A DNA stretch of 64,000 nt from Candidatus Riflebacteria bacterium HGW-Riflebacteria-2 (GTDB taxonomy: Bacteria > Muiribacteriota > Ozemobacteria > Ozemobacterales > Ozemobacteraceae). This document shows positions 7,308 through 27,300 of the stretch, in pieces. Made by a program: the position numbers and the translations under genes. Under the pieces are notes generated by a model. That model was not told the origin of the DNA and made no database searches. It was given only the letters and a program-made list of their open reading frames with translations. Location: NCBI GenBank assembly GCA_002839435.1, contig PGYA01000007.1:14756-78755 (forward strand). The letters run 5' to 3'. Position 1 is the first letter of the stretch, and each line of letters opens with the position of its first letter.

Positions 7308-8300
<993 letters not shown>

Positions 8301-8343
8301 TTCATTGCAACCAGACAAAACACAGTGACATAATCGTATGACC

Positions 8344-8371: not shown

Positions 8372-8415
8372 ATTCATTTTGACACCGGGTTGAATTGCGT
8401 CTAGAATATGTATCT

Positions 8416-12081: not shown

Positions 12082-14538
12082 ATGGACGCAGTAAATGAAC
12101 TGTTCAACGACCTGAAATCTCCTGATCCGGCGATCAGGTTTTCGGTTCTTTCGCGAATCGAAGACATGGCCTGGTCAGATGAGCATAAAGAGGCTTTTCG
12201 CAAGATTTTTGCCGGCGAAAAAGACCCTGGCATTCGTTTTCACATGCAGAAAGTTCTCGCCAGGCTCGATAGCGGCGACAAAAACCGCGGCAGCCTTGAG
12301 GCCATTGAAGAACAGCTGCAAAACCCGTTGCGTGACGAAATAAACCTGGCCCTGATGCTGGAATCGGTCAAGCGCAACGAAGCCGCCGCTGTGGCCGAAA
12401 GCCTGCGCCGTGCCGAATGGCCAAAATTCTCGCAGCAGCTGCTGCCCTCGGTGTTAAAGTTTCTCAAAAAATACGGGGCGGCAGAAGATACGCCGGCCAT
12501 CGAAAAACTGTGCCGTCACCATGATCCCCGCGTTCTCAGCGCTGCCATCGAAGCTCTTGAAAAGCACAACCCCGAGCGCCTCAAAGCCCTGATAGTTCCG
12601 CTGCTGATCAACAGCAATTTCGGTATCAGATCGCGGGCCGTGCGCCTGCTACATCGCTGGGACCCATCAGAAGCATTGCGTCACTTTGAGTCGATGCTGT
12701 TTTCGAATCTCGAAACAGAGAAACATGCGGCGCTTTATCAGGCGTTCTTTTTTCCTTTCAAACAGATAGAGACTCTCATGTTGCGCTATATAAGTGTCGA
12801 GAGCGAGCCTGAGATGATCAAAAAGGCCGGACTGATATTTATGACCAACCCGGAACGCCACATTCCGGCCCGGCTGCTCGAGGTTCGTCAGGCCTGCACA
12901 GGTATCAAGCAAAGACTGGTCGATGTGATACTCAAAGGCGTTCTGCAGTCACTCTTTCAGGCCAGAATAGTAAATGCCGCACCAGAACAGATGCTGCAGG
13001 TGCTCGAAACACATTTCAAGGAAAAGCGCATCAGGCTTTTCATAGATCACCATGGCAACGCGCTGAAGTCGCCAGAAGCAGCTGTGCGTCTGCAATCAGC
13101 CCTCAAGCTGAGCGAAATCGCAAGACGCGGTGCTGAAGAAGCCAGACAGGTGGTCGAAGCATACCTGCCGCACGAACGCGACCTTAACAATGTCAGAAAA
13201 GTCAGATATTTTCTTGAGACCGGTCAGCTTGAAATTCAAAAAACCGCTGAAACTGAGCCTCCAAAGCAGCCGTCACCGCCAAAGCCTGTGCCAACCGGAG
13301 CATCAGCCAAGCCCGCGGCTGAAAACAAAATTTCGCCGGACTCCGGGGCAGCCGTCGTCAAAACCGAAAAACCAGCCAGTAAGACTGTCGAGAAGCGGCT
13401 CTTACAGGAATATACCGCAAGAGAACGGCAAAACTTCATTTCTGCGATTTCTGCTGAAAACTACGAGCAGTACATGGCTATTATCAGACCATTTTTCCGG
13501 GAAATGGACGTAAATGAGCAGATAGCGGTGATCAAACGCATCGAAAGATTTGGCGGCCAGTCGGATTCAGAGCTTCTCATCGGCTGTCTTCATAGCGACG
13601 ATGAAAACATTCTTGAGTCAACCATTGAAGCTCTCAGCGTCATCAACCCGGAAGCGCTGCACCCCTATCTGCCACAGCTTATCAAGCATCGCTACGACGA
13701 AGTAAAGCTGGCGGCCATAAAGGTTTTTTCGCTGTTTGACAAAAAACAGGCCATCTCTCTCGTCGAAAACATGTTGCTGTCTATCAAGCCGGCACAGCGC
13801 CAGACTGCCTTATTCTGCCTCGGCAGTTTCGACTATCACTCGGTCAGCCAGATTCTTATCAATGCCTTCAAAAGTGAGAATGACAGCGAAAATCTGAAGC
13901 AGATAAGCTCCATTCTGCGCTCAAATGCCGACGAAGACACTTTTTTCCGACTGTATGTAGACTACCAGGCCTGCAAATCTTCAAAAAGGGACGAATATGA
14001 GAAACTGTGCCGGGAACTCGCCGCCACAATCGTCGAAGCTGAGCCAGGCCGACCGATAGAGGCACTTTTCTCTGCCGGCGAAGAGATGGTAGCCGAAGAA
14101 GAGCGCAAGAAAACTGAACGCGCCGCCTATAAACTCGAAAAAATTCAGAAAATACGCGAAAACGTCGACAAAACAGTGGTCATTGATGCTTCGCTGGCCA
14201 GATTTACGGTTATCTCTTATGGCGTTGGCGCAGTATTGACCGCGCTTATCTGGTTTCTCTTTCTGGCGCCACCACCACCGCTGCCGCCTGATGCTTCGCC
14301 CAGGGCAACAACTGCCCGCAAAGTTATGGAGACAATTACCATAAAAGGACGAGTTGTTATTTCAGATAAAGCTCAACGCATTGTCGCAATAGAAACTGAA
14401 CCGGGCAGATTATACAAAATGCAGCTGCCCGAAAACTTCGGCAGGATGCCTGAGCCCGGTTCCAATTTTCAGGCTCAGATCAGAGCTGAAAAAGACAGCA
14501 GCGGCGAAATAGCGGCCGAATTTCTGACCGCCTTCTGA
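12082..14538 (+). CDS. HEAT/PBS-lyase-like repeat protein with a C-terminal TM helix and a small extracytoplasmic domain
   Basis: Repeated DPxxR/IRxxA HEAT-like units (DPAIRFSVLSRI, DPGIRFHMQKVL, DPRVLSAAIEALEKH, DENILESTIEALSVI). TM segment FTVISYGVGAVLTALIWFLFLA is followed by PPPPLPP and a ~100-aa tail. Confidence 0.55.
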   Translation: MDAVNELFNDLKSPDPAIRFSVLSRIEDMAWSDEHKEAFRKIFAGEKDPGIRFHMQKVLARLDSGDKNRGSLEAIEEQLQNPLRDEINLALMLESVKRNEAAAVAESLRRAEWPKFSQQLLPSVLKFLKKYGAAEDTPAIEKLCRHHDPRVLSAAIEALEKHNPERLKALIVPLLINSNFGIRSRAVRLLHRWDPSEALRHFESMLFSNLETEKHAALYQAFFFPFKQIETLMLRYISVESEPEMIKKAGLIFMTNPERHIPARLLEVRQACTGIKQRLVDVILKGVLQSLFQARIVNAAPEQMLQVLETHFKEKRIRLFIDHHGNALKSPEAAVRLQSALKLSEIARRGAEEARQVVEAYLPHERDLNNVRKVRYFLETGQLEIQKTAETEPPKQPSPPKPVPTGASAKPAAENKISPDSGAAVVKTEKPASKTVEKRLLQEYTARERQNFISAISAENYEQYMAIIRPFFREMDVNEQIAVIKRIERFGGQSDSELLIGCLHSDDENILESTIEALSVINPEALHPYLPQLIKHRYDEVKLAAIKVFSLFDKKQAISLVENMLLSIKPAQRQTALFCLGSFDYHSVSQILINAFKSENDSENLKQISSILRSNADEDTFFRLYVDYQACKSSKRDEYEKLCRELAATIVEAEPGRPIEALFSAGEEMVAEEERKKTERAAYKLEKIQKIRENVDKTVVIDASLARFTVISYGVGAVLTALIWFLFLAPPPPLPPDASPRATTARKVMETITIKGRVVISDKAQRIVAIETEPGRLYKMQLPENFGRMPEPGSNFQAQIRAEKDSSGEIAAEFLTAF

Positions 14539-14594
14539 TTTGTCGCCAGCCCTTTTGCATTGACTTGCCGGCAAAAAGGCTATATATTTTTTCC

Positions 14595-14945
14595 ATGAGT
14601 AACTTTACCGTCAAAACAGAAAATAACAGCGACATTTTTATCGTGCGCTCGAGCGGTTACCTCGACGAAAGCGGCGGTGCTGCAGTCTTTGAGGCAGTAC
14701 AGAACACCCTGCCGGATGACTGTCACAAGGTCATTCTCAATCTTAAAGACTCACCGGTCATCAACTCACAGGGAATCGCCCAGCTCATCGAGCTCAGCGA
14801 AATAATCGTCGATGACAAGGGCGGGGAACTGGCTTTTGTCGGCCTCAGCGACCTGACTTATGGCGTATTTAAGATGGTAGGCCTGCTGCAGATGGGAAAC
14901 CCCTTTGAAAGCGAATCTGAAGCAATAGAAGCGATGCGCCAGTAA
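14595..14945 (+). CDS. STAS-domain anti-sigma-factor antagonist (SpoIIAA-like)
   Basis: About 115 aa. Contains the STAS pattern VILNLKDSPVINSQGIAQLIEL...ELAFVGLSDLTYGVFKMVGL. Confidence 0.65.
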   Translation: MSNFTVKTENNSDIFIVRSSGYLDESGGAAVFEAVQNTLPDDCHKVILNLKDSPVINSQGIAQLIELSEIIVDDKGGELAFVGLSDLTYGVFKMVGLLQMGNPFESESEAIEAMRQ

Positions 14946-15015
14946 AGGTAGACGAAAAGCTGTAAATCAGATATATTTAAGGTAAGGTACACAAAAAGAC
15001 AAGGAGGTCTTAACT

Positions 15016-15801
15016 GTGGTTATCAAGGCAACAAATTCCAACAGGCTGCACAGCAGCCTTATAAAAAGTGAAGAGGCCAGAAGCAAAACCCTCGACCGAC
15101 TGGCAACAGGCAAAAAAATAAACAGTGCCAGCGACGACCCGGCCGGTTTATCAATGGTGATGAGCCTCGAATCGCAGACACGAGGTCTGCTGATGGGCAT
15201 TAACAACCGCCAGGACGAAATTTCCCTGCTGCAGACTGCCGAAGGGGCTTTGAGCTCGACCGGCGACATGCTGCAACGGATGAATGAACTGGCAGTTCAG
15301 GCTGCCAACGGCACATTGACCAGCGAAGACCGCAGCAATATTCAGCTCGAAATAGATCAGCTGGCACAACAGGTCGATCAGACTGCCAGCAACACCGTTT
15401 ACAATGATAAAAAGCTGCTTGACGGCAGTTTCAGCATTGAACTGCAGGGCGGTGAAACCATGTCGCTGCCGGCCGCCAGTGCCGAAGCACTCGGAGTAAA
15501 TTCGCTGAATCTGACTGCCAATGCCGAACAGGCAATTGGCCAGGTCAGTCAGGCCATCAATAACGTTGCAACCCAACGTGGCACGATCGGTGCCACCATC
15601 AACGGCATAAGTTCTCAGATTGCCGGGCTGCAGAGTGAGCTTATCAACACAACTGCTTCACAGTCACGCATCGAAGACGCCGATATCGCGGCAGAACTGA
15701 TCAACATGAATATGCAGGCGCTACAGTCCAAAGCAGCCATACAGGCGTTCAAAATGCAGGACGAAAACCGCGCGACCGTTCTCAAACTCATCAACGGCTG
15801 A
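15016..15801 (+). CDS. fliC: flagellin (short, 261 aa)
   Basis: GTG start with RBS AAGGAGG. The N-terminal flagellin signature is RLATGKKINSASDDPAGLSM. The C-terminal signature is QSRIEDADIAAELINMNMQALQSKAAIQAFKMQ. Confidence 0.8.
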   Translation: MVIKATNSNRLHSSLIKSEEARSKTLDRLATGKKINSASDDPAGLSMVMSLESQTRGLLMGINNRQDEISLLQTAEGALSSTGDMLQRMNELAVQAANGTLTSEDRSNIQLEIDQLAQQVDQTASNTVYNDKKLLDGSFSIELQGGETMSLPAASAEALGVNSLNLTANAEQAIGQVSQAINNVATQRGTIGATINGISSQIAGLQSELINTTASQSRIEDADIAAELINMNMQALQSKAAIQAFKMQDENRATVLKLING

Positions 15802-16278
15802 TTACAGTGAGAGTGGTTTGAATTCCGGCTGAAACTTGAGCGGGCGACTCGCGATCGCAGCCTTTACCTGCTCAATGCTTTTGCCATGCCCCATCCCCGA
15901 GAAACTGCCGTCCGCTTCGACGGGCCAGCTGCCCTGAGGCGAGTTGAACACTTCATAATGATTATCGACAGCGCGCAAAAAAAGCAGGTAGCTTTTGCCT
16001 TCAACGAAATCGACGTTGTCTTCGATGCCGCGCCAGGTTCGGATTCTGATTTTTTCACCGGCGGCACTACCACCCTTGAGGCATTCTTTTATCTCAAACA
16101 GGCTCGCCACAACCTCTACCCCGTCAGTTTTCGTTTCGCCAGCCCGAACGCCGGCGATTCTGCCGCTCACTACCAGATCAGCACCCTGTGCGAGCTGCTC
16201 AAGACTCAAAGTTTCAATCATTGCATATCCTCCCATGCTCAACATCACCAGAAACAGTGTCAGGGCGAGATTTTTCAT
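15802..16278 (-). CDS. small secreted protein of unknown function
   Basis: RBS GGAGGAA before ATG 16278. Signal peptide MKNLALTLFLVMLSMGGYAM. Confidence 0.45.
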   Translation of the reverse strand: MKNLALTLFLVMLSMGGYAMIETLSLEQLAQGADLVVSGRIAGVRAGETKTDGVEVVASLFEIKECLKGGSAAGEKIRIRTWRGIEDNVDFVEGKSYLLFLRAVDNHYEVFNSPQGSWPVEADGSFSGMGHGKSIEQVKAAIASRPLKFQPEFKPLSL

Positions 16279-16382
16279 GCTTTCCTCCATCGGCGGGCGT
16301 CTGATCGACTCCAACATTGTAACAGTTTTTCGCGACGGGATAAAGCGTTGACAATAACGCCCGGGGTTGAGATTATTTAATT

Positions 16383-18494
16383 ATGCACTCAATGCTGTCT
16401 CGATCATCAAATTTAATAAAACGTAATGGCTTTGCCATAATGTTTGCCGTCGTCATCGGCACTGTCATGCTTATTCTGGCAGTGTCACTTTACACATTCG
16501 TCGGGCACCAGCACACTGGAATTCAAAGCATAGTCAACGGCGAAATCGCGCATTTTCTTGCTGAAGCAGGCATCAACAGCAGCATAGGCTCAGTACGTGA
16601 GGCCGTCGCCAAAGTTATGTCCGGCACTTCGGGCAACCAGCAGCTCAACGAAATACTGCTAAAACCCGGTGATCTCGATGATGTCTGTATCAATGACATG
16701 CTCGATGCCAACTGGAACCGCGACCTCGAAGAGTTTGCGCGCGAAATGGACAAAGATGCCTCGATCAAAGTCGAAGTCTGGCTGAGAGATTTCAGCAACT
16801 GCGAAACCGCGCCTGGCAGCTGGGCCGACCCGGTTGCCAAAGACGGTCATCTGGTAATTGAATCGACAGGCACCTTCAAGGGCAGCAGCCGGGTAATTCT
16901 GGTCAAGCGCAGAGTAAGAGTGGGAAATACCGTTCCCGCCTGGCTGAGCAAGTTCAGCCTGTTCGTCAACGATGCCGCCCGCGCCGGCGAAGGCGGCTTC
17001 AACCTTATCCGTAACGACTACCGCGGTATGATAACCGACGGCCCTAAGGCGCTGATTGTCTACAACCACGCCACCCCTGACGCGCCCTTCGAGGCCGGCA
17101 ACATGAGCGATATTCTGCGCGAAGAAGGCGATAAAGACATCTGGCAACGCCGCGGCTGGCTCTGGATGGGAGGCCGGCGCAGCCGGCTGAATCTCTGTTC
17201 CGGCGCCGGCGATCTCGGCGAAATATTCCATTTTTACGATGTCAGCAACCCGAATATCTTTTCGCCGGTCAAGTTCTCGACACCGGCAGAAGCTCTTCCC
17301 GAAGCTTTTTCTACGTCGCTGATGATTCCGTGGGACAAAAGCGACACCTCAGTCCGCCAGGTCAGTTACAGATTCGGGCACAGTTTCGTGCTCGATGGCT
17401 TTCACGACCGCAGCAACCGCAAAGAAAGCGACGCGATGTACGAAGGCAACATCCTTTCAACTGGTGAAAAAAACTCCTATTCATCTAAATCATCGATTCT
17501 GCACCTGTTCGGTGATGCGCGCAAGGGTTACCAGTCGCGCACCCGCGTGTTTGGCAACGTTCACATCGCTTTCCCGCGCTATGCCAGCCTTGAAGTAAAA
17601 GCTGACGAACCCGACGTCGAGGCACTCTTTACCGCGGTCAACCCGCCGCCGCTTTATCTGCTGCCTTCGGTTTCAGAGAGCGCCTGGCACAATTCGATCA
17701 TGATTCAAGACATCATGGGCCGCAAGTTTGGCGGGCCGTTACTGCAATCAGGCATGCTCTGCCGCAGTTACGCTGACTACGCGCAACTGATGAGCCGAAT
17801 CAGCGAACTGCCTTATGCTGAATCCTACAACAGCATGCAGGACGTCTACAGTAATAAGGCCGGCCGGGTGTTTCCATCAGATGCCAGCATTCTTGCCATG
17901 GACAACGGCCTCAACCTCGAAATTTCGCGCGACAGTCACGTTTTTTTCAAGGGCCGACCGACAGCACAGGGACTGCTTCAGGTTATAGACAACCGCACAC
18001 AAATCGAAGTCGATTCGATAAACGATTTCTGGAAACGTTTTCTCAATGAGCGCGATGAGCTTGAGCTCAATGCCATAGTCAGTATAAAGAATCCGCGTCA
18101 GCTCGACATGCAGATTCCAGCCGCCGGCAAACCACAACCGATGACAGTAAAAGGCGGCGGAATGATCATACTCCGGCAGGGCAACCTGGTATTGCGCGGC
18201 ATCAGCTGTGCATCACCCGACGAGGCACTGACCGTCGTTCTCGCCGGTAACGGTTCGGTAAGCTTTTCTTCGACGCAGCCCAATCATGTAAACATTGTTG
18301 CGCCCAACGCCGAGCTGGGTTATGGTTCTAAATTCGACATGTATGGCTCCATGTGCGTCGGCTCTATCTACGCCGACCATCGTTTTCAGGGCGGCACCCT
18401 GCGCTTTCGCCCCGGCCAGGATCCTGCCACTTCCGGTTACAACCGATATTACAAGGTATTTATCGATCCCAAGGATTCATTCTGGAATGAATAA
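16383..18494 (+). CDS. large (703 aa) PilX/GspK-like minor pilin / putative pilus-tip protein
   Basis: N-terminal anchor KRNGFAIMFAVVIGTVMLILAVSLYTF is PilX_N-like with no Glu5. It is followed by a large globular region and lies directly upstream of two canonical pseudopilin genes. Confidence 0.5.
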   Translation: MHSMLSRSSNLIKRNGFAIMFAVVIGTVMLILAVSLYTFVGHQHTGIQSIVNGEIAHFLAEAGINSSIGSVREAVAKVMSGTSGNQQLNEILLKPGDLDDVCINDMLDANWNRDLEEFAREMDKDASIKVEVWLRDFSNCETAPGSWADPVAKDGHLVIESTGTFKGSSRVILVKRRVRVGNTVPAWLSKFSLFVNDAARAGEGGFNLIRNDYRGMITDGPKALIVYNHATPDAPFEAGNMSDILREEGDKDIWQRRGWLWMGGRRSRLNLCSGAGDLGEIFHFYDVSNPNIFSPVKFSTPAEALPEAFSTSLMIPWDKSDTSVRQVSYRFGHSFVLDGFHDRSNRKESDAMYEGNILSTGEKNSYSSKSSILHLFGDARKGYQSRTRVFGNVHIAFPRYASLEVKADEPDVEALFTAVNPPPLYLLPSVSESAWHNSIMIQDIMGRKFGGPLLQSGMLCRSYADYAQLMSRISELPYAESYNSMQDVYSNKAGRVFPSDASILAMDNGLNLEISRDSHVFFKGRPTAQGLLQVIDNRTQIEVDSINDFWKRFLNERDELELNAIVSIKNPRQLDMQIPAAGKPQPMTVKGGGMIILRQGNLVLRGISCASPDEALTVVLAGNGSVSFSSTQPNHVNIVAPNAELGYGSKFDMYGSMCVGSIYADHRFQGGTLRFRPGQDPATSGYNRYYKVFIDPKDSFWNE

Positions 18495-18930
18495 GACACA
18501 GCGTAGCGGCTTATCAATGATTGAAATCGTCTTTTCGATCGGCATACTTGCCCTGATCATGCTGCCTGTGTTCATGACGTTTTCGAGTGGCAACCGCAAT
18601 ATACAGCTGACAGACTCAGAATTCAGGGCACACACAGCCGCGATCGAGCTGATGGAACAGATTGTTTCGCTGCCGTTCGGCCAGATAAAAAGCGGTGAAT
18701 ATGACAGTGACACGATTATCGACGGCGGGCAGTTTGCCGACGGCCCGGTTTTGTTCAAGCTTTCGCCAGTCGAAGATCTCAGGCACACATTGAAAATTGA
18801 GGATATCAAACGTGACGGCAAAACTCTGTTCAAGAAAGTCACGGTAACGATAAAGTTTGCCGCGGCGCCTGGTTCAGACCGTATCCGCGAATTTTTCATG
18901 AAAACGCTGGTGGCCAATGAAAACCTGTAA
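18487..18930 (+). CDS. pseudopilin (prepilin N-terminal motif)
   Basis: Start MNKTQRSGLSMIEIVFSIGILALIML contains the G-LSMIE motif with Glu5. ATG 18487 overlaps the stop of the upstream gene. Confidence 0.6.
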   Translation: MNKTQRSGLSMIEIVFSIGILALIMLPVFMTFSSGNRNIQLTDSEFRAHTAAIELMEQIVSLPFGQIKSGEYDSDTIIDGGQFADGPVLFKLSPVEDLRHTLKIEDIKRDGKTLFKKVTVTIKFAAAPGSDRIREFFMKTLVANENL

Positions 18931-19498
18931 AACCCGGGCATTTACACTGGTCGAAATTATTGTCGTCTGCGGCATAGTTACCGTTTTTCTCGGCACGGCC
19001 ATTATGCTTTTCACCAACTTCCGGCGAGGCTTCAGCCGCAGTGAAGGCACGGCGGTCCTGATGCAGGATGGCGCCCTCTTTCTGGCGCGCCTGCGCACCG
19101 ATCTTAACAACGCGGTTATAGCGCCCGACGCTTCCGGCGGCACCCCGGCCCAGATCAATACAACTCCCGATCAGCTGAGCTTTATGGTTTACAGCAGTCG
19201 TGAGGCGAAAGCCCTGCCGGTAATCTACCGCTATCTGGCCGCAGAGAACGGCGGCAGTATTTTTCGGCGCGAGGGCGGCGAGAAAGAGCGCGAACTGATA
19301 AAGGATCGCGTCGCATCTCTCACCTGGCAGACCGAACTGGAAAGGTTTGTAGAACCTGATAGTACTGGTTCCGGCACCATAAGGCTCAGCATTGGCCTCG
19401 ACATGAAACTTAAAATGAAAAGTGGCGACGAGAAACCTTTTTCGCTGAAAACCTCTATTTTCCCGGCCCGTCTCAATCGTCAGCTCAACTCGCCCTGA
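18917..19498 (+). CDS. pseudopilin (prepilin N-terminal motif)
   Basis: MKTCKTRAFTLVEIIVVCGIVTVFLGTAIML carries the classic A-FTLVEI motif. Confidence 0.65.
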   Translation: MKTCKTRAFTLVEIIVVCGIVTVFLGTAIMLFTNFRRGFSRSEGTAVLMQDGALFLARLRTDLNNAVIAPDASGGTPAQINTTPDQLSFMVYSSREAKALPVIYRYLAAENGGSIFRREGGEKERELIKDRVASLTWQTELERFVEPDSTGSGTIRLSIGLDMKLKMKSGDEKPFSLKTSIFPARLNRQLNSP

Positions 19499-19577
19499 CC
19501 TCTGTCACTTTTTTGCAACAAATAGAAGGAAAATTTCGTATAATTATACAGGCGAATGTACAGGGGGAGGTATTTAT

Positions 19578-20789
19578 ATGACACAGAAATGGCTGATCCT
19601 GGTGAGCATACTGCTTTTCACTGCTTTTGCTCCAGTTTATGGGCAGAGCGGCAGTTATCTCGACAGCATCTACAGCGCAGACGGCCAGGGCACCTCAGCC
19701 ATAGCTGACGAACCCGAAACCCGATATGTAGACGACAGCGATAATCCTCCCGAAGTCGTTGACGTCCCGGAACCAACTGGTGACCCGGCACAACAGAAAG
19801 CCCTCGAACGCCTGCAGAACATCATCAATCAGATCATGCGTATAATTGGCGGTAAAATGTGCGGCGCCAGAATTGTCGTGGTGGTAATTCCCTGCGAAAA
19901 AATAGTGCCAAAGCCCAAGCCCCCGGTAACCAGCACATCGACTTCTACTGCTACCTCGACCTCGACTGCGACCTCTACCGGCACGCAGACCTCTACCAGC
20001 ACAACCACTTCGACAAGCACGCAGACCTCGACGAGCACATCGACTTCGACCGCCACCTCTACTGGCACGCAAACCTCTACCAGCACAGCGACTTCGACCG
20101 GAACTTCAACGGCGACGGCGACGGCCACTTCCACCAGCACCGGCACCAGCACGGCAACAGGCAAAGAAGCAGTACGTGCCGCTATCCGGCAAAAATACGG
20201 CATAAATGCCGCCGATGGCCAGAATCAGACCTGGAGCGAAAATCAGCTGCGGGCAGCTGACGAAGCACTTGCTTCCTTACCATCGTTCTTCCGCAAGTGC
20301 ACCGATACAGTCTATCGTGACGGCCCGCCATACGACTCGAGAATACCACCCAGCGCCGCGGCCTATGTTATAGTGCCTCAGCACAAAGTTCATATGCTCG
20401 ATCTCAGCGCCCAGATGACACAGGGCGCCTACAATTCGCTGGTAGCGGCCTATGGACGCGCACCAACCACCGAAGAGCAGATGGCCTATCTCAAGCATAA
20501 TTTCAAACGCACTCTGGTGCATGAGATGACGCACTGTTTCCAGAATACCTACCCACAGGTCATGCAGAACTGGAGCAGACAATTCTGGCCGGGTGGCCGC
20601 CTCGTCGGACAGTGCCCAACCGGTTATGGTCGCACTCAGCCGGTTGAAGACATGTCAGAATCGGTAGCCACCTACTGGACCGGCGGCTCGATCAAAAATG
20701 GCGTATTCGTTTCAAGAAGCGGTGCCACCATGGATCTCGAACGCTACAACTTCATCAAGCAATACATCATGGATGGCAAGGAATACTGA
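19578..20789 (+). CDS. secreted HExxH zinc-metallopeptidase-like protein with a Thr/Ser-rich linker
   Basis: RBS GGGGGAGG. Signal peptide. A ~75-aa (T/S/A/G)n linker. The C-terminal domain has LVHEMTHCF (HExxH) and a downstream EDMSES motif with a candidate third Zn-ligand Glu. Confidence 0.55.
   Translation: MTQKWLILVSILLFTAFAPVYGQSGSYLDSIYSADGQGTSAIADEPETRYVDDSDNPPEVVDVPEPTGDPAQQKALERLQNIINQIMRIIGGKMCGARIVVVVIPCEKIVPKPKPPVTSTSTSTATSTSTATSTGTQTSTSTTTSTSTQTSTSTSTSTATSTGTQTSTSTATSTGTSTATATATSTSTGTSTATGKEAVRAAIRQKYGINAADGQNQTWSENQLRAADEALASLPSFFRKCTDTVYRDGPPYDSRIPPSAAAYVIVPQHKVHMLDLSAQMTQGAYNSLVAAYGRAPTTEEQMAYLKHNFKRTLVHEMTHCFQNTYPQVMQNWSRQFWPGGRLVGQCPTGYGRTQPVEDMSESVATYWTGGSIKNGVFVSRSGATMDLERYNFIKQYIMDGKEY
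19927..20160. repeat. degenerate tandem repeat of ACN/TCN codons encoding the Thr/Ser linker
   Basis: Repeated units such as acctcgac / acctctac / acttcgac are visible in the sequence. Confidence 0.7.
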
Positions 20790-20806
20790 GCTGAAAGGAT
20801 CAAGCA

Positions 20807-22162
20807 ATGAATAGACTGGCACTGGTTCTGACAATCCTTCTGGCCCTTTCAGCTCCTGCCTGGAGCCAATCAGGCAGCTACCTCGACGCCGTCTACCAGG
20901 TCTACGACAACGCCAGCGACACCGACCCGCTGGAAACCCTTAAAAACAGCATTCGCGATCAGTTCGAAATCGAGATTGCCGATGACCCAGATGTTCATCG
21001 CTGGTCAGAAGACTGGCTAAATGCCACGAAAACCGTGCTGACCGCGCTTCCAGCCAGTTTTCGCGCGGCGACCCGCATGATCTACCTCGAACCCAGCAAC
21101 CTTGATTTCGAAGTCAAATACAATGGCTACAACGATCAGCATGGCATAGTTCAGATGGGCCATGGTTCGATGTATCCATCATCGGTTTACGTCAGCAAGT
21201 TCAAGGCGACCTATAACCGCCTGCCTACAAGCGCCGAAAAAATAGCACGTTTCAAGTATATCCTGGCGAGAGGCATGGCCTACAGCTTCATTCAGGAAAA
21301 CCCCGACATTTTCAAGGCATACGGTCAGACGATTACCTACGGTGACTACCCGACCAAAGTCTACGGGCCGGGTGCCGAAGCCAACATGGTTGTACTTCCC
21401 GGCAAAACACCATTGATGATCGATCTGGCATTTGCCATCGGTGAATACTGTGCGGCGCCTTCCAGCCTGCAGAAGAAATCAAAAGATCGCTTTGATTTCG
21501 TAAAAGCCCACGTTATGGGCGGCACTGCCATCTCCGGCTGGGATTACAAGCCAATCGATGACTCAGCCTCGAACACCACCGACCCCGGCAACGACGATCC
21601 GGGCAATAATGTCGAAGTTCCTACTGCCAGCGGCGCTCCCGAGATTCCAGATGGCGACTACATGCCGATTGTCACCGAAGTCGATGTCGGCACCGCTGCC
21701 GCCAATCTGCCGACTGAATGGAAAACCGCACCCGATCTGCTCAAGAGCGCAATTGCCGAGCTTTTCGAAGTGTTGCCCAAGTTTTTCTCGACCTGCACTC
21801 AGGCTATTGCCTATATGCCGACAACCGATACCGAAACCGCTTTTTCCGCCGAAGGCTTCGTCTTTATCACCCAGAATTCATGGTTCATGTCATCATTTGT
21901 CGATCTCGACGATGCCGCGCGCGGCAAGCGTTTTAAAGAGATACTGATGCGTGAAATGGCACTGCGCTTTCTCTACTTCCACCCTGAAGTCACGCAGAAG
22001 TGGAAAGACACCTTCGACAAGACCCAGAGCAGTTACGACGCCTATATCGACATGCAGCAGGCAGTTGTCGGCTATTTCGCAGCCCCGGCCTGGCTCAAAC
22101 AGGTGAACCAGGCGCGCTACAACTTCATCAAAACCGAGTTCATGCAGGGCAAAGAATTCTAG
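20807..22162 (+). CDS. secreted paralog of the upstream metallopeptidase-like protein, with an internally duplicated domain and degenerate (His-less) active-site motifs
   Basis: It shares the N-terminus (signal peptide + QSGSYLDxVY) and the C-terminus (RYNFIKxxxMxGKE[YF]) with the 19578 gene. The motif positions read ILARGMAYSF and LMREMALRF instead of HEMTH. Confidence 0.5.
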   Translation: MNRLALVLTILLALSAPAWSQSGSYLDAVYQVYDNASDTDPLETLKNSIRDQFEIEIADDPDVHRWSEDWLNATKTVLTALPASFRAATRMIYLEPSNLDFEVKYNGYNDQHGIVQMGHGSMYPSSVYVSKFKATYNRLPTSAEKIARFKYILARGMAYSFIQENPDIFKAYGQTITYGDYPTKVYGPGAEANMVVLPGKTPLMIDLAFAIGEYCAAPSSLQKKSKDRFDFVKAHVMGGTAISGWDYKPIDDSASNTTDPGNDDPGNNVEVPTASGAPEIPDGDYMPIVTEVDVGTAAANLPTEWKTAPDLLKSAIAELFEVLPKFFSTCTQAIAYMPTTDTETAFSAEGFVFITQNSWFMSSFVDLDDAARGKRFKEILMREMALRFLYFHPEVTQKWKDTFDKTQSSYDAYIDMQQAVVGYFAAPAWLKQVNQARYNFIKTEFMQGKEF

Positions 22163-22192
22163 TCCTTTGTCACATAAGAGTTTGGTGTTATC

Positions 22193-22265
22193 TGTCATTG
22201 CGAGCAAAGCGAAGCAATCTCACAGACAGAAGGATTGCTTCGTCGCTACGCTCCTCGCAATGACA
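22193..22265. repeat. palindromic intergenic element (TGTCATTGCGAG...GAAGCAATC // GATTGCTTC...CTCGCAATGACA), full copy, between convergent genes
   Basis: Nested inverted repeats are readable directly. Related copies occur at 36945, 45765 and 59795. Confidence 0.75.
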
Positions 22266-22302
22266 GTTTTCAAACACACATTCAAATGTGACAGAGGACT
22301 CT

Positions 22303-24846
22303 TCAGGTGCTGGAGCGGCGGGCAATCTGTTTTTTGGTGCCGCGGCTGGCGACGGCGATGGTGGGATCATCGGGCCAGGGGTGTTTCGGGTAGCGGCCTT
22401 TGAGCTCTTTTATCACCTGCGGATACCCGGTCTGCCAGAAAGAGGCAAGATCGGCGGTTATCTGTACCGGTCGCCCGGCCGGTGAGAGCAGGTGCACCAG
22501 CAATCGGCACTGGCCATCACAGATGGCTGGCGTCTGTGCCATGCCAAAGAGTTCCTGAATTTTTACAGCGAGAATCGGCGCCGCCTCAGCCGCCTGATAT
22601 TGCAGGCACAGGGCGCTGCCAGAAGGCACTGTAAAGCGCTCAGGCACCAGTTTTTCGAATTTTTCGCGATTTTTCCAGCTTAAATTCTGCAGGTATAACT
22701 GTTCGAGCGACTGCCGCTGCATATCGGCAAAACCGCGACATGTCGATGCCAGCGCGCGTATCTGCATCGCCAGCCAGTCATCGTCGATCGCCGGAAAATC
22801 AGCGCCAGCCCGACAAGCTTTGAGTGTAGTAACCCGGTTGATAAAGTTGCGGTTGGCGTCAGCATCGAGCGCCAGTGCCTTGCCGGGGTCAGCCAGCGCA
22901 GCGGCAACCAGAATTTCGACGGCTGCGTCAGCCTCGTCAGGCCTCACTGCTGCCTCATTTTCGCGCAGCATCAGTTTGCCGTAGAAAACACGCTCGCGCG
23001 CCATAACACGCGCGTGGGACCTGCTGAAAAACAGCTCGCGCCGACGCTGATAGAGACGCTGTTCGGCCAGCAAAGATTCTTCGAGCGCACAGGCAAGAAA
23101 TATCCGGCCGTCACCGATTCTCTGAGTCTGATCCAGGCGTAACGCGAGAATCAGCGGTTCCCCTGGCAACAGCCCGTTTTCACTGATAACAAAACCCTGG
23201 CCACCACAGATAGTATAACTGCCCGAACGCCCGTCACTGCGCCTTTGACAGACACGATCAGGAAATGCCGCGAGCAAAGCCCGGTGCAGTTTGTCGCCAG
23301 AAATTGTGGGCACTTGTGCCGGCTTTCTGCGCATGAGTTCGAGCAGCTGCTTCTGTATGTTATAAATTCTTCTGACCGCGTTGCGGTCAATTTCGATGTC
23401 TGGCGGCAAACTGCCGAGATCGCCGGCGGCAAGAAGCTGGAGACGCCATTCGAGGTCGGCATCGACCCGGTTTCTGCCGGTTCTTAAAAAGTCTTTCTCA
23501 GAAATCACGGCGGCGGCTAAAGCCGCGGTTTCGCCAATGCCAAGCTGCGCGGCAACAATCAGCATGCGCGCCAGCCTGGGCTCAAGCGGCAGTTCTGACA
23601 TCTTGCGACCGGCAGTTGTGATCTTGCCGCTTTCATCTACTGCGCCAAGCATTTGCAGCAGTTCCAGCGAACGCGCAATTTTTTCGGGGCCCGGCGATTG
23701 CAGCCAGTTGAAGTGTAATGGATCGCGACAGCCCCAGGCAAAAAGCTCGAGAACAGCAGAAGTCGGATCGATTCTGAGTATCTCGGGCGGATCGTTTTCG
23801 GCCATCTGATGATGTTCTGGCTGGCTCCAGAGGCGGTAAGCGCGGCCCGGCTTCAGACGACCGGCGCGGCCGGCGCGCTGCGCCGCCGAAGACCGGCTGA
23901 TACGATGCAGACTGAGCTGTTCAAGGCCGCTTTGTGAATCTATTTCGAGCCAGCGTGCTTCGCCGGAGTCGATTACTACGGTGATTCCATCGATGGTCAG
24001 AGAAGTTTCGGCGATATTGGTGCTCAAAATAATGCGCGGCCGCGCGGCTGGTCGCAAAACCTTTTCCTGTTCGCTTACTGGCAACGAACCGTGCAGATGC
24101 ATGATTTGATGCCCGGAAAGACTGGCGGCCAGATGTTCAGATACCCGCATTATTTCGCCCATTCCAGGCAAAAAGACAAGAAATTCCTCGGCGCGGCCAG
24201 ACTCAGCAACTATCTGCGCAATCGCACCGGCCAATTCACCGATGCGGTCACGGCCAGACGAAAAAGGCCGGTATTGAATATCTACCGGGTAAAGAAAGCC
24301 TTTACCTTCTATCAGTTGCGGCCGGTCAAGAAAGCTTTGCGCCAGTTCAAGGTCTGCGGTCGCTGACATCAGCATCAGCCTGAGATCAGGCCGCACCTCA
24401 CGTTTTATTTCGCGGCACAGGGCAAGGCAAAGATCGGTGTGCACCGAGCGTTCGTGAAATTCATCGAAAATTACCAGTCCAACGTCTTCGAGCAGAGGAT
24501 CCTTCTGCAGGCGCCGGGTAAGAATACCCTCGGTAAGCACTTCTATACGTGTTGCCGACGTGATATTGCTGTCGAAGCGGACTCTATGGCCGATCACGGC
24601 ACCTGGCGGCGAAGCGTCGAGACTGGCCATGCGGCGCGCCAGCGCCACGGCAGCGATTCGGCGTGGTTGCAATATCACGATGCGTTTTCCGGCCAGCCAG
24701 GCTTCGTCTTTCAGCGCCAGCGGCACGATGGTAGACTTGCCGGCCCCGGGCGCCGCCGACAGAATCACATCGCGATTATCAGCAAGAGCAGCCTTGATCT
24801 GAGGCAGACTCTCTTCTACCGGAAACCCGCGCGATCTTTGATTCAT
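22303..24846 (-). CDS. hrpB: ATP-dependent DEAH-box helicase HrpB
   Basis: Motifs GAGKST, DEFHER and SATAD are present. The protein is 847 aa with the characteristic HrpB C-terminal domain. Confidence 0.9.
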   Translation of the reverse strand: MNQRSRGFPVEESLPQIKAALADNRDVILSAAPGAGKSTIVPLALKDEAWLAGKRIVILQPRRIAAVALARRMASLDASPPGAVIGHRVRFDSNITSATRIEVLTEGILTRRLQKDPLLEDVGLVIFDEFHERSVHTDLCLALCREIKREVRPDLRLMLMSATADLELAQSFLDRPQLIEGKGFLYPVDIQYRPFSSGRDRIGELAGAIAQIVAESGRAEEFLVFLPGMGEIMRVSEHLAASLSGHQIMHLHGSLPVSEQEKVLRPAARPRIILSTNIAETSLTIDGITVVIDSGEARWLEIDSQSGLEQLSLHRISRSSAAQRAGRAGRLKPGRAYRLWSQPEHHQMAENDPPEILRIDPTSAVLELFAWGCRDPLHFNWLQSPGPEKIARSLELLQMLGAVDESGKITTAGRKMSELPLEPRLARMLIVAAQLGIGETAALAAAVISEKDFLRTGRNRVDADLEWRLQLLAAGDLGSLPPDIEIDRNAVRRIYNIQKQLLELMRRKPAQVPTISGDKLHRALLAAFPDRVCQRRSDGRSGSYTICGGQGFVISENGLLPGEPLILALRLDQTQRIGDGRIFLACALEESLLAEQRLYQRRRELFFSRSHARVMARERVFYGKLMLRENEAAVRPDEADAAVEILVAAALADPGKALALDADANRNFINRVTTLKACRAGADFPAIDDDWLAMQIRALASTCRGFADMQRQSLEQLYLQNLSWKNREKFEKLVPERFTVPSGSALCLQYQAAEAAPILAVKIQELFGMAQTPAICDGQCRLLVHLLSPAGRPVQITADLASFWQTGYPQVIKELKGRYPKHPWPDDPTIAVASRGTKKQIARRSST

Positions 24847-25246
24847 TACTTATCAAAACCTGCTATAGAAATAATTAAACCTGTATATATTCTGCCTACC
24901 CGGGCTCTCGGCGGGATTAGGCCGATCTTACGACTTTAGTCGTTAGAGCGGCGGATCCCTTTAGGGGCCCAACGCTTCAACTCTCACCAGACGAAAACTG
25001 ATTTTAAAAAGCTATGGCTTTGCGTCAAAGGTGCCTGGCTCGGCCTAGCTGCTCTATCCTGCGCAGCTCGGCATAAGCACCTCCCTGTGCAAAAAGTTTA
25101 CGCTTATGGGATACCCACCTGCGCCCTCAATATACTTATTTTTGTATAGAAATGCTTACCAGCAGAGCATGTTGAAGGGATGAACAATATTAACTGCTAC
25201 TATAAAATCGGTTAAATCGGCGGAATCTGCGGATTATTTTCCGCGT

Positions 25247-25765
25247 TTACTTTTGCTGGCGCTTCAAAGTGCCGTCAGTGAACTCGAACACTGCGGTGTC
25301 TTCAACCTGAGGTTCGACGTCGGTGTCGGTATAGGCGATATAAACCCGCTTACGACCGCTGCCGTCGCGATCTTCGATCGAGGCTTCGCCGGCGGCATAA
25401 CCGGTTTCAAGCCAGACTGGCAGATAAACGCCTTCTTTGAAATGCAGCAGCTCAAACTCGCGATAACCGCCGGAACCACCGAGATCCATCTGAATAAGCA
25501 GCTCACCGATACCGTCACCATCGAGGTCTTCGTGAATGACCTGCTGAATGGCGCGCCCTTCCGATTCGAAAACCTCTATGGCTTCGTCGCCCTGCTCAAG
25601 CACAATACTGTCGTTAAAAGCCAGGCCGTCGGGTATGGCAGAGCGCTCTAACACAAGCTTGCCATGCGGCAGTTCAGCGATAATCGAACGCTCTGACGGC
25701 TGGGCGAAGCCTGGAGTTATTCCTGACAACAAAGCGATCAAGACCGAAAAGATGATTTTATTCAT
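25247..25765 (-). CDS. secreted protein of unknown function (DxDGDG motif)
   Basis: RBS AGGGAAA before ATG 25765. Signal peptide MNKIIFSVLIALLSGITPGFAQ. Contains DLDGDGIGE. Confidence 0.45.
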   Translation of the reverse strand: MNKIIFSVLIALLSGITPGFAQPSERSIIAELPHGKLVLERSAIPDGLAFNDSIVLEQGDEAIEVFESEGRAIQQVIHEDLDGDGIGELLIQMDLGGSGGYREFELLHFKEGVYLPVWLETGYAAGEASIEDRDGSGRKRVYIAYTDTDVEPQVEDTAVFEFTDGTLKRQQK

Positions 25766-26067
25766 ATTGTTTCCCTGTATGCCAATTCTATAGTTAATCG
25801 TAAAACTCGTCAGCTGATTCGTCAACGTCTGATAATACAAAAGTAATTATACTTCAAATGCAAGCACATCTTCACGGCGCCGGCGCAAAAGTTTTTAAAC
25901 GTTGTCAACTTTAGCTGTCCATAGTTTAACTGTTAATAATTGTAAAGACGGTTCATCGGCTTGTGCCGTCGTGATATCATTTATGCGTAAAAAAATCAGA
26001 GGCTGTTTTTACAAACGGCTTTTTGCCGCCAGAACACCGTAAACAGGCACATCAACAGGAGAAGATA

Positions 26068-27300
26068 ATGAAAAAATTCGCACTGACATTCATTCTTGGT
26101 CTTGCGATAGCCGGCGTTATAATTCACACAATACAGGGCGGATCAGGCACAAAAACGGGTGGCCCCGGACGACGCGGGCCAGGCGTTGCCAGGGTTGCGG
26201 TTGAAATCACTCCGATAAAAGTTGCCAGCCTGGTCGATGAGGGCCGTTTCGTCGGTTCTCTTGAATCGAAGTCAAAATTCATGGTGGCGCCCAAGATTTC
26301 GGGCCGTCTTAAAAAGCTGCTGGTCGATATAGGCGACAGCATCGATAATGGTGAAACCGTAGCATTTCTCGATGACGAAGAGCTGCTTCTCTCGGTTAAA
26401 CAAGCTGAAGCCGATATGGAAATAGCCCGCGCCAATTTCACCGAAAGCACCGAATTGCTCGAGATTTCGCAGCGCGAGCTCGACCGTGTCAAAACCATGC
26501 GCCAGCAGAAGGTTTCGTCAGAAGTTGATGTCGAAAACGCTCAGGCAGCGCATAAGACCCGCCAGGCCAGACACCAGGTCAACCGGGCGCTGCTCAGCCA
26601 GAAGGAAGCCGCTCTTGAAACCGCAAAAGTCAGGTTATCTTATGCCAGGGTAACCGCTTCCTGGAGCGACAGTAATGGCAGTCGCTTCATAGCCGAGCGC
26701 TTTCTCAACGAGGGCGCGATGATCTCGGCCAACACACCGATTGTTTCGGTCATCGACATAGCGACGATAACCGCAGTAATAGATGCGGTAGAGCAGGACT
26801 ATTTCAAATTAGAAACAGGACAAATGGCTGAGATCGAGCCATCGGCGACACCCGGCCGCACTTATCAGGCAAGAATTTCGCGCATAGCACCAATGCTCGA
26901 TGAGGCTTCCCGCCAGGCCCGTATTGAGCTTGAACTCAGCAACAGCGATTATCAGCTCAAACCCGGGATGTTCATCCGAGCCCGCATTATTTTCGCAAAG
27001 CATAACGACGCAACGGTGGTTCCGGCTTCGGCCATGGCCAGGCGCAACGAGCGTGAGGGCGTTTTTCTGATCGACCACGAAAGTGAGAAGGCCAACTTCA
27101 TACCAATCGAAAGAGGCTTTACCGAGGGTGAATTTGTCGAAATAGCATCTCCCAGCCTTTCCGGCGATGTTGTCACACTTGGACATCACCTGCTGGAAGA
27201 CGGTATGGCGATTATTCTTGCCGACAAGAATCGGCCAGCAGAGAAGAGCGAAAAGAAAGGCAAGGGCCCGGGCGCGACGAAAGGCGGTCGGCAGCCATGA
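26068..27300 (+). CDS. RND efflux membrane fusion protein (periplasmic adaptor, HlyD/AcrA family)
   Basis: RBS AGGAGA. N-terminal anchor, coiled-coil hairpin region, beta-barrel and MP domain motifs (VTASWSDSNGSRFIAERFLNEGAMI...). It overlaps the downstream permease gene. Confidence 0.8.
   Translation: MKKFALTFILGLAIAGVIIHTIQGGSGTKTGGPGRRGPGVARVAVEITPIKVASLVDEGRFVGSLESKSKFMVAPKISGRLKKLLVDIGDSIDNGETVAFLDDEELLLSVKQAEADMEIARANFTESTELLEISQRELDRVKTMRQQKVSSEVDVENAQAAHKTRQARHQVNRALLSQKEAALETAKVRLSYARVTASWSDSNGSRFIAERFLNEGAMISANTPIVSVIDIATITAVIDAVEQDYFKLETGQMAEIEPSATPGRTYQARISRIAPMLDEASRQARIELELSNSDYQLKPGMFIRARIIFAKHNDATVVPASAMARRNEREGVFLIDHESEKANFIPIERGFTEGEFVEIASPSLSGDVVTLGHHLLEDGMAIILADKNRPAEKSEKKGKGPGATKGGRQP

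Follow-up and report, generated by a model that had tools for sequence, protein, structure and literature searches.

What do two adjacent, related genes for predicted secreted proteins encode when they lie directly behind genes for putative minor pseudopilins, and is the first of them a working protease and the second a dead one? The initial annotation of the window, that is, the whole 64,000-nt stretch of DNA analyzed here, had described tandem secreted paralogs at 19578-22162, and both open reading frames lie exactly at these coordinates on the + strand, with 17 nt between them and a Shine-Dalgarno-like sequence before each. We consider it likely that one gene encodes a secreted protease and the other a paralog that binds without catalysis, and that a pseudopilus would export or display both.

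Domain layout of gene 1

19578..20789, + strand: gene 1, a predicted secreted ATLF-like HExxH zinc peptidase of 403 aa (ORF, upstream ribosome-binding site GGGGGAGG, homologues)
19578..19643, + strand: hydrophobic signal peptide, aa 1-22, with predicted cleavage at VYG↓Q (read from the sequence)
19644..19925, + strand: N-terminal module, aa 23-116, with QSGSYLDSIY, an acidic stretch, the helix LERLQNIINQIMRII and the strand ARIVVVVIPC (alignment and HMM)
19926..20162, + strand: Thr/Ser-rich low-complexity spacer, aa 117-195 (composition, tandem repeats)
20163..20786, + strand: predicted catalytic ATLF-like zincin domain, aa 196-403
20520..20534, + strand: HEMTH zinc-binding/catalytic motif, aa 315-319 (conservation in 144 representatives)
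20625..20663, + strand: YGRTQPVEDMSES, aa 350-362 (alignments to 2l0r; Glu357 and Asp358 invariant)

The signal peptide that had been proposed for gene 1 corresponds to the hydrophobic residues 1-22, and orthologues have AXA↓Q at the predicted cleavage point instead of VYG↓Q. The Thr/Ser linker, first estimated at about 75 aa, is 79 aa long (40 T, 22 S, 8 A, 5 G, 3 Q, and 1 V) and is encoded by an imperfect tandem repeat; an O-glycosylated or mucin-like spacer had been suggested here as a possibility. Because the orthologues carry Pro/Asp- or Pro/Lys/Glu-rich spacers of differing lengths instead, spacing appears to outweigh composition. The catalytic domain would be held on this flexible Thr/Ser stalk of ~80 residues, below the conserved N-terminal module.

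Gene 1 has an ATLF-like active site

An M34/ATLF-like fold had been put forward as one to look for. The AF2 model of gene 1 residues 196-403 reached pLDDT 95.1 and pTM 0.91, the HExxH motif lies on the active-site helix of a zincin fold, and the family profile matched anthrax lethal factor with an E-value of 0.59 when 10 sequences were used and 0.012 when 144 were used; the sequence similarity of the domain to M34 is borderline significant. In the family profile, HEMTH, YG.T, E, and AE align with HEFGH, Y728, E735, and E739 of lethal factor, and in the profile alignments (2l0r) Tyr350, Glu357, and Glu361 of gene 1 align with Tyr728, Glu735, and Glu739. The downstream YGxT...E..AE motif, which contains the catalytic Tyr and the third-ligand Glu, is therefore present, and the reading of HEMTH...E as gluzincin-like holds: the third ligand is a Glu, Glu357, on the next helix. 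Among 144 representatives with no more than 50% identity to each other, Glu316, Glu357, and Asp358 are invariant, and His315, His319, Tyr350, and Glu361 are at least 90% conserved.

The most probable product of gene 1 is an active zinc endopeptidase that is exported by Sec and would represent an uncurated family within the ATLF-like gluzincins, a group that includes anthrax lethal factor, the Pro-Pro endopeptidases (PPEPs), MtfA, and Peptidase_Mx1. His315, His319, and Glu357 would bind zinc, and, as in lethal factor, the general base would be Glu316 and the transition state would be stabilized by Tyr350.

The impression that neither protein fits a well-known peptidase family agrees with the database searches, in which gene 1 and gene 2 reached no Pfam or NCBIfam model. 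The ATLF model (PF07737) gave no match to the gene 1 protein at E<=1 and its gathering threshold of 27.4 bits was not reached; sub-threshold ATLF matches were obtained for 28 of 109 relatives at E<=0.1 (best E 1.9e-5), and the two relatives with listed scores, 15.9 and 17.9 bits, are likewise under the 27.4-bit threshold. Matches to SOG2 and serine-rich protein models in Pfam and NCBIfam were discarded as low-complexity noise from the Thr/Ser linker, and a single-sequence PDB search returned chance matches alone, e.g., peptidylarginine deiminase (E 0.09).

Gene 2 contains two dead copies of the domain

20807..22162, + strand: gene 2, a predicted secreted double pseudo-protease of 451 aa (ORF, 51 homologues, AF2 model with pLDDT 82.8)
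20807..20896, + strand: signal peptide (aa 1-20) and mature N-terminal motif QSGSYLDAVY (aa 21-30) (sequence)
20927..21541, + strand: N-terminal dead ATLF-like domain, about aa 41-245, in which RGMAY (aa 155-159, 21269-21283) replaces HExxH
21617..22159, + strand: C-terminal dead ATLF-like domain, about aa 271-451, in which REMAL (aa 382-386, 21950-21964) replaces HExxH

It had been left open whether the two genes resemble each other beyond their terminal motifs, which are QSGSYLD(S/A)(I/V)Y and, at the common C-terminus, RYNFIK..M.GKE(Y/F). They do: in BLASTP comparisons the gene 1 domain matches the N-terminal half of gene 2 with an E-value of 5e-11 and the C-terminal half with 2e-8, and RGMAY and REMAL of gene 2 align with HEMTH of gene 1. 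A profile-profile comparison (hhalign) gave a probability of 99.6% and an E-value of 5.8e-25, and by these sequence comparisons the paralogy of the two genes is far beyond chance. The presence of two copies of the domain in gene 2 was also confirmed, since the two halves match each other (E 8e-9), and the PPEPs and both lethal factor domains came out as structural matches of the gene 2 model as well as of gene 1.

The replacement of the His ligands in both copies, recognized at the outset, extends to the homologues of gene 2 (38-89% identity): His is absent from either ligand position of both copies in 32 of 32 homologues. At the HExxH positions, the N-terminal copy has Arg155 and Tyr159 in all 32, and the C-terminal copy likewise has Glu383 in all 32, with Arg382 (26 of 32 homologues) and Leu or Lys386. 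Gene 2 thus has the character of a pseudo-protease, in which the fold is kept, the catalytic and metal-binding residues are lost, and the sequence, including the conserved replacement residues, is under purifying selection. This combination of a preserved fold and conserved replacements makes it most likely that gene 2 acts by binding and not by cutting, and it would serve the protease, or the protease's target, as partner, adaptor, or regulator. It is a paralog formed by internal duplication of the domain, with loss of all zinc ligands from both copies.

The pair forms the 3' end of a putative pseudopilin cassette

15802..16317, - strand: 171-aa secreted protein that recurs beside gene 1-like peptidases in many loci
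16383..18494, + strand: big703, a 703-aa protein with the pilin-like N-terminus RNG↓FAIMFAVVIG, first gene of the cassette (ORF, synteny)
18484..18930, + strand: putative minor pseudopilin A, 148 aa, RSG↓LSMIEIV (sub-threshold N_methyl and XpsI matches, synteny)
18917..19498, + strand: putative minor pseudopilin B, 193 aa, TRA↓FTLVEIIV (sub-threshold N_methyl and GspH matches, synteny)
22192..22270, no strand assigned: long hairpin in the stretch that separates gene 2 from the convergent hrpB-like helicase gene (fold energy)

The initial annotation had passed over the genomic context, in which a conserved cassette that begins with big703, pseudopilin A, and pseudopilin B ends with gene 1 and gene 2. 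The two pseudopilins are putatively assigned from the prepilin motifs visible at their N-termini (G↓LSMIE and A↓FTLVE) and from family matches that are sub-threshold: the PF07963 scores are 16.0 and 18.5 bits versus a cut-off of 21.2, and the XpsI and GspH matches have E-values of 3e-4. The 703-aa protein has G↓FAIMF without Glu5, as in GspK; it has no Pfam or PDB match and no detectable relative outside Riflebacteria, where its homologues all lack a protein name. For the 171-aa protein on the opposite strand there was no PDB sequence match and a weak Pfam match. The hairpin 3' of gene 2 (-44.8 kcal/mol, z -5.15) is likely a bidirectional terminator that closes the operon. Elsewhere the 64,000-nt window encodes an RND efflux operon, cyclases, a Kelch protein, and acetate kinase, and it contains no secretin, ATPase, or major pilin.

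A search for the pair in related genomes, as had been suggested, recovered the full order big703-pseudopilin A-pseudopilin B-gene 1-gene 2 in 15 of 40 GTDB species-representative loci (L004-L017 and L030). In seven more GTDB loci and in L001, big703, the pseudopilins, and gene 1 are retained, but the slot of gene 2 is taken by active paralogs or by other genes. The placement of gene 1 after the minor pilins is kept in more than 20 species-level genomes, as expected of an operon, and wherever gene 2 occurs within a pseudopilin cassette it is directly downstream of gene 1. Co-transcription of gene 1 with the pseudopilins is uncertain because the 80-nt, same-strand gap between pseudopilin B and gene 1 contains a TATAAT-like box.

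A common N-terminal peptide and a proposed route of export

Substrate recognition by type II secretion systems and secreting pili is described as still poorly understood (PMC10120004). In the present locus, one short, conserved, apparently disordered N-terminal peptide is found on two different proteins whose genes immediately follow those of the putative minor pseudopilins: QSGSYLD(S/A)(I/V)Y directly follows the signal peptide of both the gene 1 and gene 2 proteins, the motif lies behind AXA↓Q cleavage sites in both families, and the QSGSYLDAVY region has low pLDDT and is disordered in the gene 2 AF2 model. The position at the end of the cassette, together with this common disordered peptide, suggests that a pseudopilus of the type II secretion or type IV pilus-like kind would carry the two proteins as cargo or bear them at its tip, recognizing both through the N-terminal peptide QSGSY(5)LDxxY.

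Pilus operons are known to encode secreted proteins, TcpF and CofJ, whose flexible mature N-terminus (Tyr5 or Phe10) docks on the minor pilin at the pilus tip (PMC9565799, PMC6048534, PMC10120004). Like these cargo proteins of the type IVb pili of Vibrio cholerae (TcpF) and ETEC (CofJ), the gene 1 and gene 2 proteins are predicted to be soluble and Sec-exported and are apparently encoded in the same operon as minor pilins, and the key aromatic residue of TcpF, Tyr5 (PMC9565799), has a possible counterpart in the Tyr at mature position 5 of QSGSYLD, which is followed by a second Tyr at position 10. However, there is no sequence or fold relationship between the gene 1 and gene 2 proteins and TcpF or CofJ, the pseudopilins are not TcpB/CofB-like, and, unlike the TcpF/CofJ case, QSGSYLD is also found on proteins encoded away from pseudopilins; docking would be analogous.

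A restriction of QSGSYLD to cassette-encoded proteins was rejected with a looser pattern and an HMM and survives for the gene 2 family only, whose homologues outside the cassette lack the motif. Since gene 1-like proteins with QSGSYLD are also encoded away from pseudopilins (L018-L020), the motif is not tied to the cassette in cis, and the peptide might alternatively serve as a pro-peptide or anchor. A portable targeting domain that other cargo enzymes would have in common with gene 1, e.g., the 288-aa protein of L037, was also considered for the 94-aa N-terminal module, but the HMM of this module matched gene 1-like proteins only.

Gene 1-like proteins with the full N-terminal module beside an LptD-like gene, with no pseudopilins (L018 and L020), would be readily explained if the gene 1 and gene 2 proteins were simply exported by Sec to the periplasm or beyond the cell and had nothing to do functionally with the pseudopilins. 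Their adjacency would then be gene order inherited within one phylum, and the peptide would be a pro-peptide, an autoinhibitory segment, or an envelope anchor. A same-strand prepilin-type ORF is nevertheless found no more than 4 kb upstream of the peptidase domain in 26 of 42 loci, about 7-fold above the background rate of about 0.085 per 4 kb in the same loci, although the synteny counts are not independent events because most loci come from one phylum. Among the 26 are a locus from Wallbacteria and another, different cassette of the L001 genome, and the link between peptidase and pseudopilins is seen again where the cassettes are non-orthologous (L042 of Wallbacteria, the second cassette L037, and L036/L039). 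The possible promoter of gene 1 and the gene 2 homologues of gut Riflebacteria, which lie behind a two-component system instead, are compatible with simple Sec export, but the dead protease encoded by gene 2 needs no autoinhibitory pro-peptide and yet has QSGSYLD in the cassette and none outside. We therefore regard ordinary Sec export as a rather unlikely explanation and prefer export or display through the pseudopilus.

A broader proposal, which we offer tentatively and hold to be doubtful in its full form, is that Riflebacteria and Wallbacteria carry modular minor-pseudopilin cassettes, each with its own cargo, and that here QSGSY(5)LDxxY would dock the protease and its dead paralog on a tip complex of the 703-aa protein and the two pseudopilins. 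The pseudopilus might push the proteins out, or show the protease at its tip on the flexible stalk. If true, the peptide would act as a signal, defined by its sequence, for secretion or display by a type II secretion-like system that is not one of the type IVb pili, and the pseudo-enzyme would be a co-cargo or adaptor. The QSGSYLD case presents a concrete candidate peptide-protein interaction that is testable with recombinant proteins, although all the organisms are uncultured MAGs.

Comparison with known ATLF-like proteins

Lethal factor (M34; ATLF PF07737) is secreted and, like gene 1, has HExxH and YG(R)T...E..AE in the same register, at about 13% identity. Gene 1 has one small domain on a low-complexity stalk, whereas lethal factor is a four-domain toxin, and no protective-antigen system was seen in the window. 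Lethal factor also pairs an active ATLF domain with a dead one, but here the dead copies are in a separate gene. Dead ATLF domains are known as the N-terminal domains of lethal factor, edema factor, and Certhrax; those of gene 2 differ in being free-standing, two in tandem, and in having their own conserved replacement motifs. The locus provides a clean example of a predicted protease that is paired with a pseudo-protease duplicated in tandem, much as anthrax lethal factor has both active and dead ATLF domains.

The PPEPs (PPEP-1/Zmp1, PPEP-2, and PPEP-3; M34) are small secreted single-domain enzymes of about 200 aa that resemble the gene 1 domain. They have a similar distance of ~42 residues from HExxH to the third-ligand Glu, and in both cases functionally linked genes appear to adjoin the protease gene. 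Nevertheless, the match of the gene 1 family profile to the PPEPs is marginal (E about 0.2), and the PPEPs are from Firmicutes and are without the N-terminal module, stalk, or pseudopilin context of gene 1. A riboswitch of the type that controls PPEP-1 was not found, Rfam giving no match in the window.

PPEP-1 and PPEP-2 are reported to cleave proteins whose genes adjoin their own. In the same style, gene 2, which in the cassette is always immediately downstream of gene 1, could be the substrate of gene 1, or its regulator or decoy, i.e., an inhibitor occupying the substrate or the protease. The inter-domain linker of gene 2 (aa 254-268) is disordered in the AF2 model, in line with such a role, but it is short and not conserved, and some gene 2 homologues have no adjacent gene 1. 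A PPEP-type cleavage site in the Pro-rich stretch of gene 2 (consensus RPPPEIPDGDY) was rejected: PEIPDGDY is folded confidently into the C-terminal domain (pLDDT 85-91), and gene 2 of the window reads SGAPEIP, without the PPP of the consensus. We consider a regulator, decoy, or substrate role improbable, and favor a binding paralog that is exported with the protease.

The commonest sub-threshold Pfam matches among the relatives were to the families of MtfA (Peptidase_M90) and BACCAC_01431 (Peptidase_Mx1). Peptidase_M90 (PF06167) did not match the gene 1 protein and weakly matched 36 of 109 relatives (best E 4.6e-7), with scores listed for individual relatives of 13-22 bits, under the 26.2-bit threshold. 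Peptidase_Mx1 (PF15890) gave sub-threshold matches in 13 of the 109; gene 1 does not reach its curated threshold and has no lipoprotein signal. Mx-type enzymes are surface proteins encoded with outer-membrane machinery, and the Mx/Mx1 proteins are Bacteroidetes lipoproteins, whereas gene 1 is without a lipobox Cys; MtfA is cytoplasmic and binds Mlc, whereas gene 1 has a signal peptide. Although Peptidase_M90 is the most frequent of these matches, it is very unlikely that the HExxH domain is no peptidase and instead binds or regulates in a metal-dependent manner (in the way MtfA titrates Mlc) or catalyzes another reaction on this scaffold (as YbeY-type nucleases or HExxH oxygenases do). Against this, the whole catalytic set of lethal factor and the PPEPs is conserved, down to the Tyr and the Glu that is the third ligand, gene 1 is predicted to be secreted whereas MtfA and YbeY are cytoplasmic, and MtfA is itself a peptidase.

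Literature searches returned no description of the gene 1/gene 2 family or of the cassette. The gene 1-type family is small (about 370 representative clusters) and found mostly in Riflebacteria and Wallbacteria, and its lethal factor/PPEP-type active site is intact, with no Pfam or NCBIfam model covering it. The public gene call cuts gene 1 down to 131 aa, and this ATLF-like family is consequently under-annotated.

Organization and conservation of the cassette

The tandem ORFs proposed by the initial annotation, gene 1 and gene 2, are both present on the plus strand at the positions it gave, separated by 17 nt, and occupy a conserved position behind three pilin-like genes. The stops and starts of these three upstream genes overlap, gene 1 begins 80 nt past them, and gene 2 is the last gene of the unit.

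Features of the gene 1/gene 2 locus
15802-16317, minus strand: 171-aa secreted protein without family assignment
Upstream, same strand as gene 1: 703-aa protein with pilin-like N-terminus RNG/FAIMF...
Upstream, same strand: pseudopilin A, 148 aa, RSG/LSMIEIV, weak XpsI match
Upstream, same strand: pseudopilin B, 193 aa, TRA/FTLVEIIV, weak GspH match
19578-20789, plus strand: gene 1, 403-aa ORF, Shine-Dalgarno-like sequence upstream
Gene 1, aa 1-22: hydrophobic signal peptide
Gene 1, aa 23-116: conserved N-terminal module
Gene 1, aa 117-195: 79-residue spacer, almost exclusively Thr (40) and Ser (22)
Gene 1, C-terminal domain: HEMTH, aa 315-319; YGRTQPVEDMSES, aa 350-362
20807-22162, plus strand: gene 2, 451-aa ORF, Shine-Dalgarno-like sequence upstream, signal peptide
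22192-22270: hairpin between gene 2 and the convergent hrpB-like helicase gene (-44.8 kcal/mol, z -5.15)

The signal peptide, Thr/Ser linker (79 residues) and HEMTH domain first described for gene 1 are all there, and the DNA of the spacer consists of imperfect tandem repeats. The 22192-22270 element is a long imperfect palindrome (GTCATTGCGAG..GCGAAGCAATC / GATTGCTTCG..CTCGCAATGAC) with a single occurrence in the window; it probably terminates transcription in both directions or represents a palindromic repeat element. The window derives from a Riflebacterium, and its sequence is the same as that of JGI contig Ga0246098_00099 (JGI 3300038336; locus L044, corresponding to 14401-26789) except for a ten-N run in the JGI record, which breaks pseudopilin B where the window reads TTT. 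The L044 annotation starts gene 1 at an internal Met, giving only 131 aa, and calls a spurious 124-aa antisense ORF within the Thr/Ser-linker DNA.

The pair recurs in related genomes, where the initial annotation had suggested searching for it. One gene order is shared by 15 of the 40 GTDB species-representative loci (L004-L017 and L030): flagellin, 171-aa protein (opposite strand), 703-aa protein, pseudopilin A, pseudopilin B, and then the gene 1/gene 2 pair. More distant Riflebacteria, Ozemobacter sibiricus among them, have the 171-aa protein and a second catalytically intact HExxH paralog (in locus L001 a third too) instead of gene 2, so the double domain without catalytic residues is derived and belongs to one clade. 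The intact paralogs at the gene 2 position of L001, from a distant Riflebacterium, lie at 11086-12363 (HEITH) and 12888-13817 (HEMTH), the first starting with QSHSFLESYLQ, a diverged form of the N-terminal motif described below.

In 26 of 42 loci, the peptidase domain is preceded within 4 kb by a prepilin-type ORF on the same strand, including the non-orthologous cassettes of Wallbacteria (L042) and the second cassette of the L001 genome (L037); the density of such ORFs elsewhere in the same loci is ~0.085 per 4 kb. No secretin, ATPase or major pilin was found within the window.

A mature N-terminal peptide common to both proteins

In both the gene 1 and gene 2 families, the signal peptide ends at an AXA/Q or similar site, and the mature proteins start with a common peptide, Q-S/N-G/A/S-S-Y-L-D-x-[IVL]-Y. 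The gene 2 model has pLDDT below 50 for aa 15-38, covering the motif, which suggests that this stretch is disordered. Signals of this kind have an established precedent in TcpF and CofJ, cargo proteins of type IVb pili whose genes belong to the pilus operon; their flexible mature N-terminus (Tyr5 or Phe10) docks on the tip-located minor pilin (PMC9565799, PMC6048534, PMC10120004). The gene 1 and gene 2 products could likewise be pseudopilus cargo or tip-associated, recognized via the N-terminal peptide, although docking of both proteins in this way is a tentative proposal. Rather doubtful, too, is the alternative that the pseudopilin adjacency is functionally meaningless and the peptide a pro-peptide or anchor. 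An HMM of the 94-aa gene 1 module detects it in all gene 1-like proteins, some of them not beside pseudopilins, and the overlap of gene 2 with this module is limited to the first ~20 residues; gut-Riflebacteria homologs of gene 2, encoded behind a two-component system outside the cassette, are devoid of the motif. The shared peptide is a testable lead on how pseudopili recognize substrates.

Gene 2 encodes two dead copies of the gene 1 domain

Gene 2 is a co-encoded secreted paralog of gene 1. By BLASTP, the gene 1 domain matches its N-terminal half with E 5e-11 and its C-terminal half with E 2e-8, and the halves match each other with E 8e-9; profile-profile comparison gives a probability of 99.6% and E 5.8e-25. 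The HExxH positions are occupied by RGMAY and REMAL, bearing out the duplicated domain and replaced His ligands of the initial annotation, whose observations hold throughout. The dead domain of the ATLF family (the anthrax lethal factor catalytic domain, PF07737) in lethal factor works as a binding module, and by analogy the gene 2 product probably has a binding role as partner, adaptor or regulator. That it is instead an inhibitor or substrate of gene 1, on the Pro-Pro endopeptidase (PPEP) paradigm, seems unlikely.

The gene 1 domain has an intact zinc site

Gene 1 encodes a secreted protein with a flexible stalk and an intact lethal factor/PPEP-type zinc site. Its domain is 96% identical to a match in Candidatus Rifleibacterium amylolyticum. 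Foldseek supports an ATLF-like fold, with matches to 4l7a (E 4.5e-4) and lethal factor (E 0.05). A 10-sequence profile aligned weakly with the lethal factor catalytic center (2l0r, E 0.59), and a 144-sequence family profile gave E 0.012 against 2l0r and E 0.008 against 4l7a. Both profiles align HEMTH with lethal factor HEFGH, Tyr350 with Tyr728, Glu357 with Glu735 (the third zinc ligand) and Glu361 with Glu739, lethal factor residue numbers that fit the offset of the 2l0r fragment; the gluzincin-like reading of HEMTH...E agrees with this. Among 109 distant relatives, sub-threshold Pfam matches are to Peptidase_M90 (36/109), ATLF (28/109) and Peptidase_Mx1 (13/109). The domain thus belongs to the ATLF-like gluzincins and falls outside all curated families, as the first inspection by eye had indicated.

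When 1.84 billion representative proteins were searched exhaustively with a profile, 370 relatives came up at E<=1e-3. HExxH is present in nearly all of the 144 best-scoring ones, whose alignment shows no variation at Glu316, Glu357 and Asp358 and >=90% conservation at His315, His319, Tyr350 and Glu361. An active enzyme would be expected to show this pattern. It is very unlikely that the domain is not a peptidase. The gene 1 product would be a zinc endopeptidase active outside the cytoplasm; jointly, this activity, a binding role for gene 2 and operon membership are probable.

Neither the fold nor the catalytic logic is new, and dead ATLF domains are a known concept. New are a family without a curated model (~370 representative clusters, mainly Riflebacteria and Wallbacteria), its architecture, in which a stalk links an N-terminal module to the domain, the tandem pseudo-protease partner as a free-standing protein, and the recurrent tie to minor-pseudopilin cassettes with the shared N-terminal peptide; a literature search found no description of the family, architecture, partner or cassette link. 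The finding is solid and tidy, and not startling as it stands.

Other cassettes and neighboring genes

Second pseudopilin cassette of the window
1432-5656, minus strand: whole cassette
3215-5656, minus strand: 813-aa secreted protein, long (DPS)n linker
2632-3231, minus strand: pseudopilin, 199 aa
2084-2635, minus strand: PilX-like protein, 183 aa
1432-2106, minus strand: pseudopilin, 224 aa

This cassette suggests that each of several pseudopilin cassettes has its own secreted protein. In the L037 cassette, which shares a MAG with L001, genes for a 691-aa pilin-like protein and two pseudopilins precede those for a 288-aa secreted protein (Thr-rich linker, different C-terminal domain), a 171-aa protein homolog and, last, a gene 1-like peptidase. 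Both L037 cargo proteins (7955-8821 and 9524-10540) have an amphipathic helix ahead of the linker. A ~160-170-aa secreted protein lies directly beside gene 1-like peptidases in L018, L019, L021, L023-L025, L027, L037 and L040, also in loci without pseudopilins, and may serve these peptidases specifically as a partner, inhibitor or substrate.

Outside pseudopilin cassettes, a ~683-aa conserved outer-membrane protein (LptD/OstA-like, weak LptC match) is divergent to a gene 1-like gene in L018 (6950-8998) and L020 (6620-8674, minus strand). This pairing is common to a Rifleibacterium MAG and a MAG labeled Avigastranaerophilus, a label that may be a binning error. Elsewhere in the window, two tandem paralogous HAMP/guanylate-cyclase-domain proteins of ~980 aa each (53890-59722, minus strand) and a protein of 1968 aa that carries Kelch repeats at its C-terminus (39805-45711, plus strand) appear unrelated to the protease/pseudo-protease pair.
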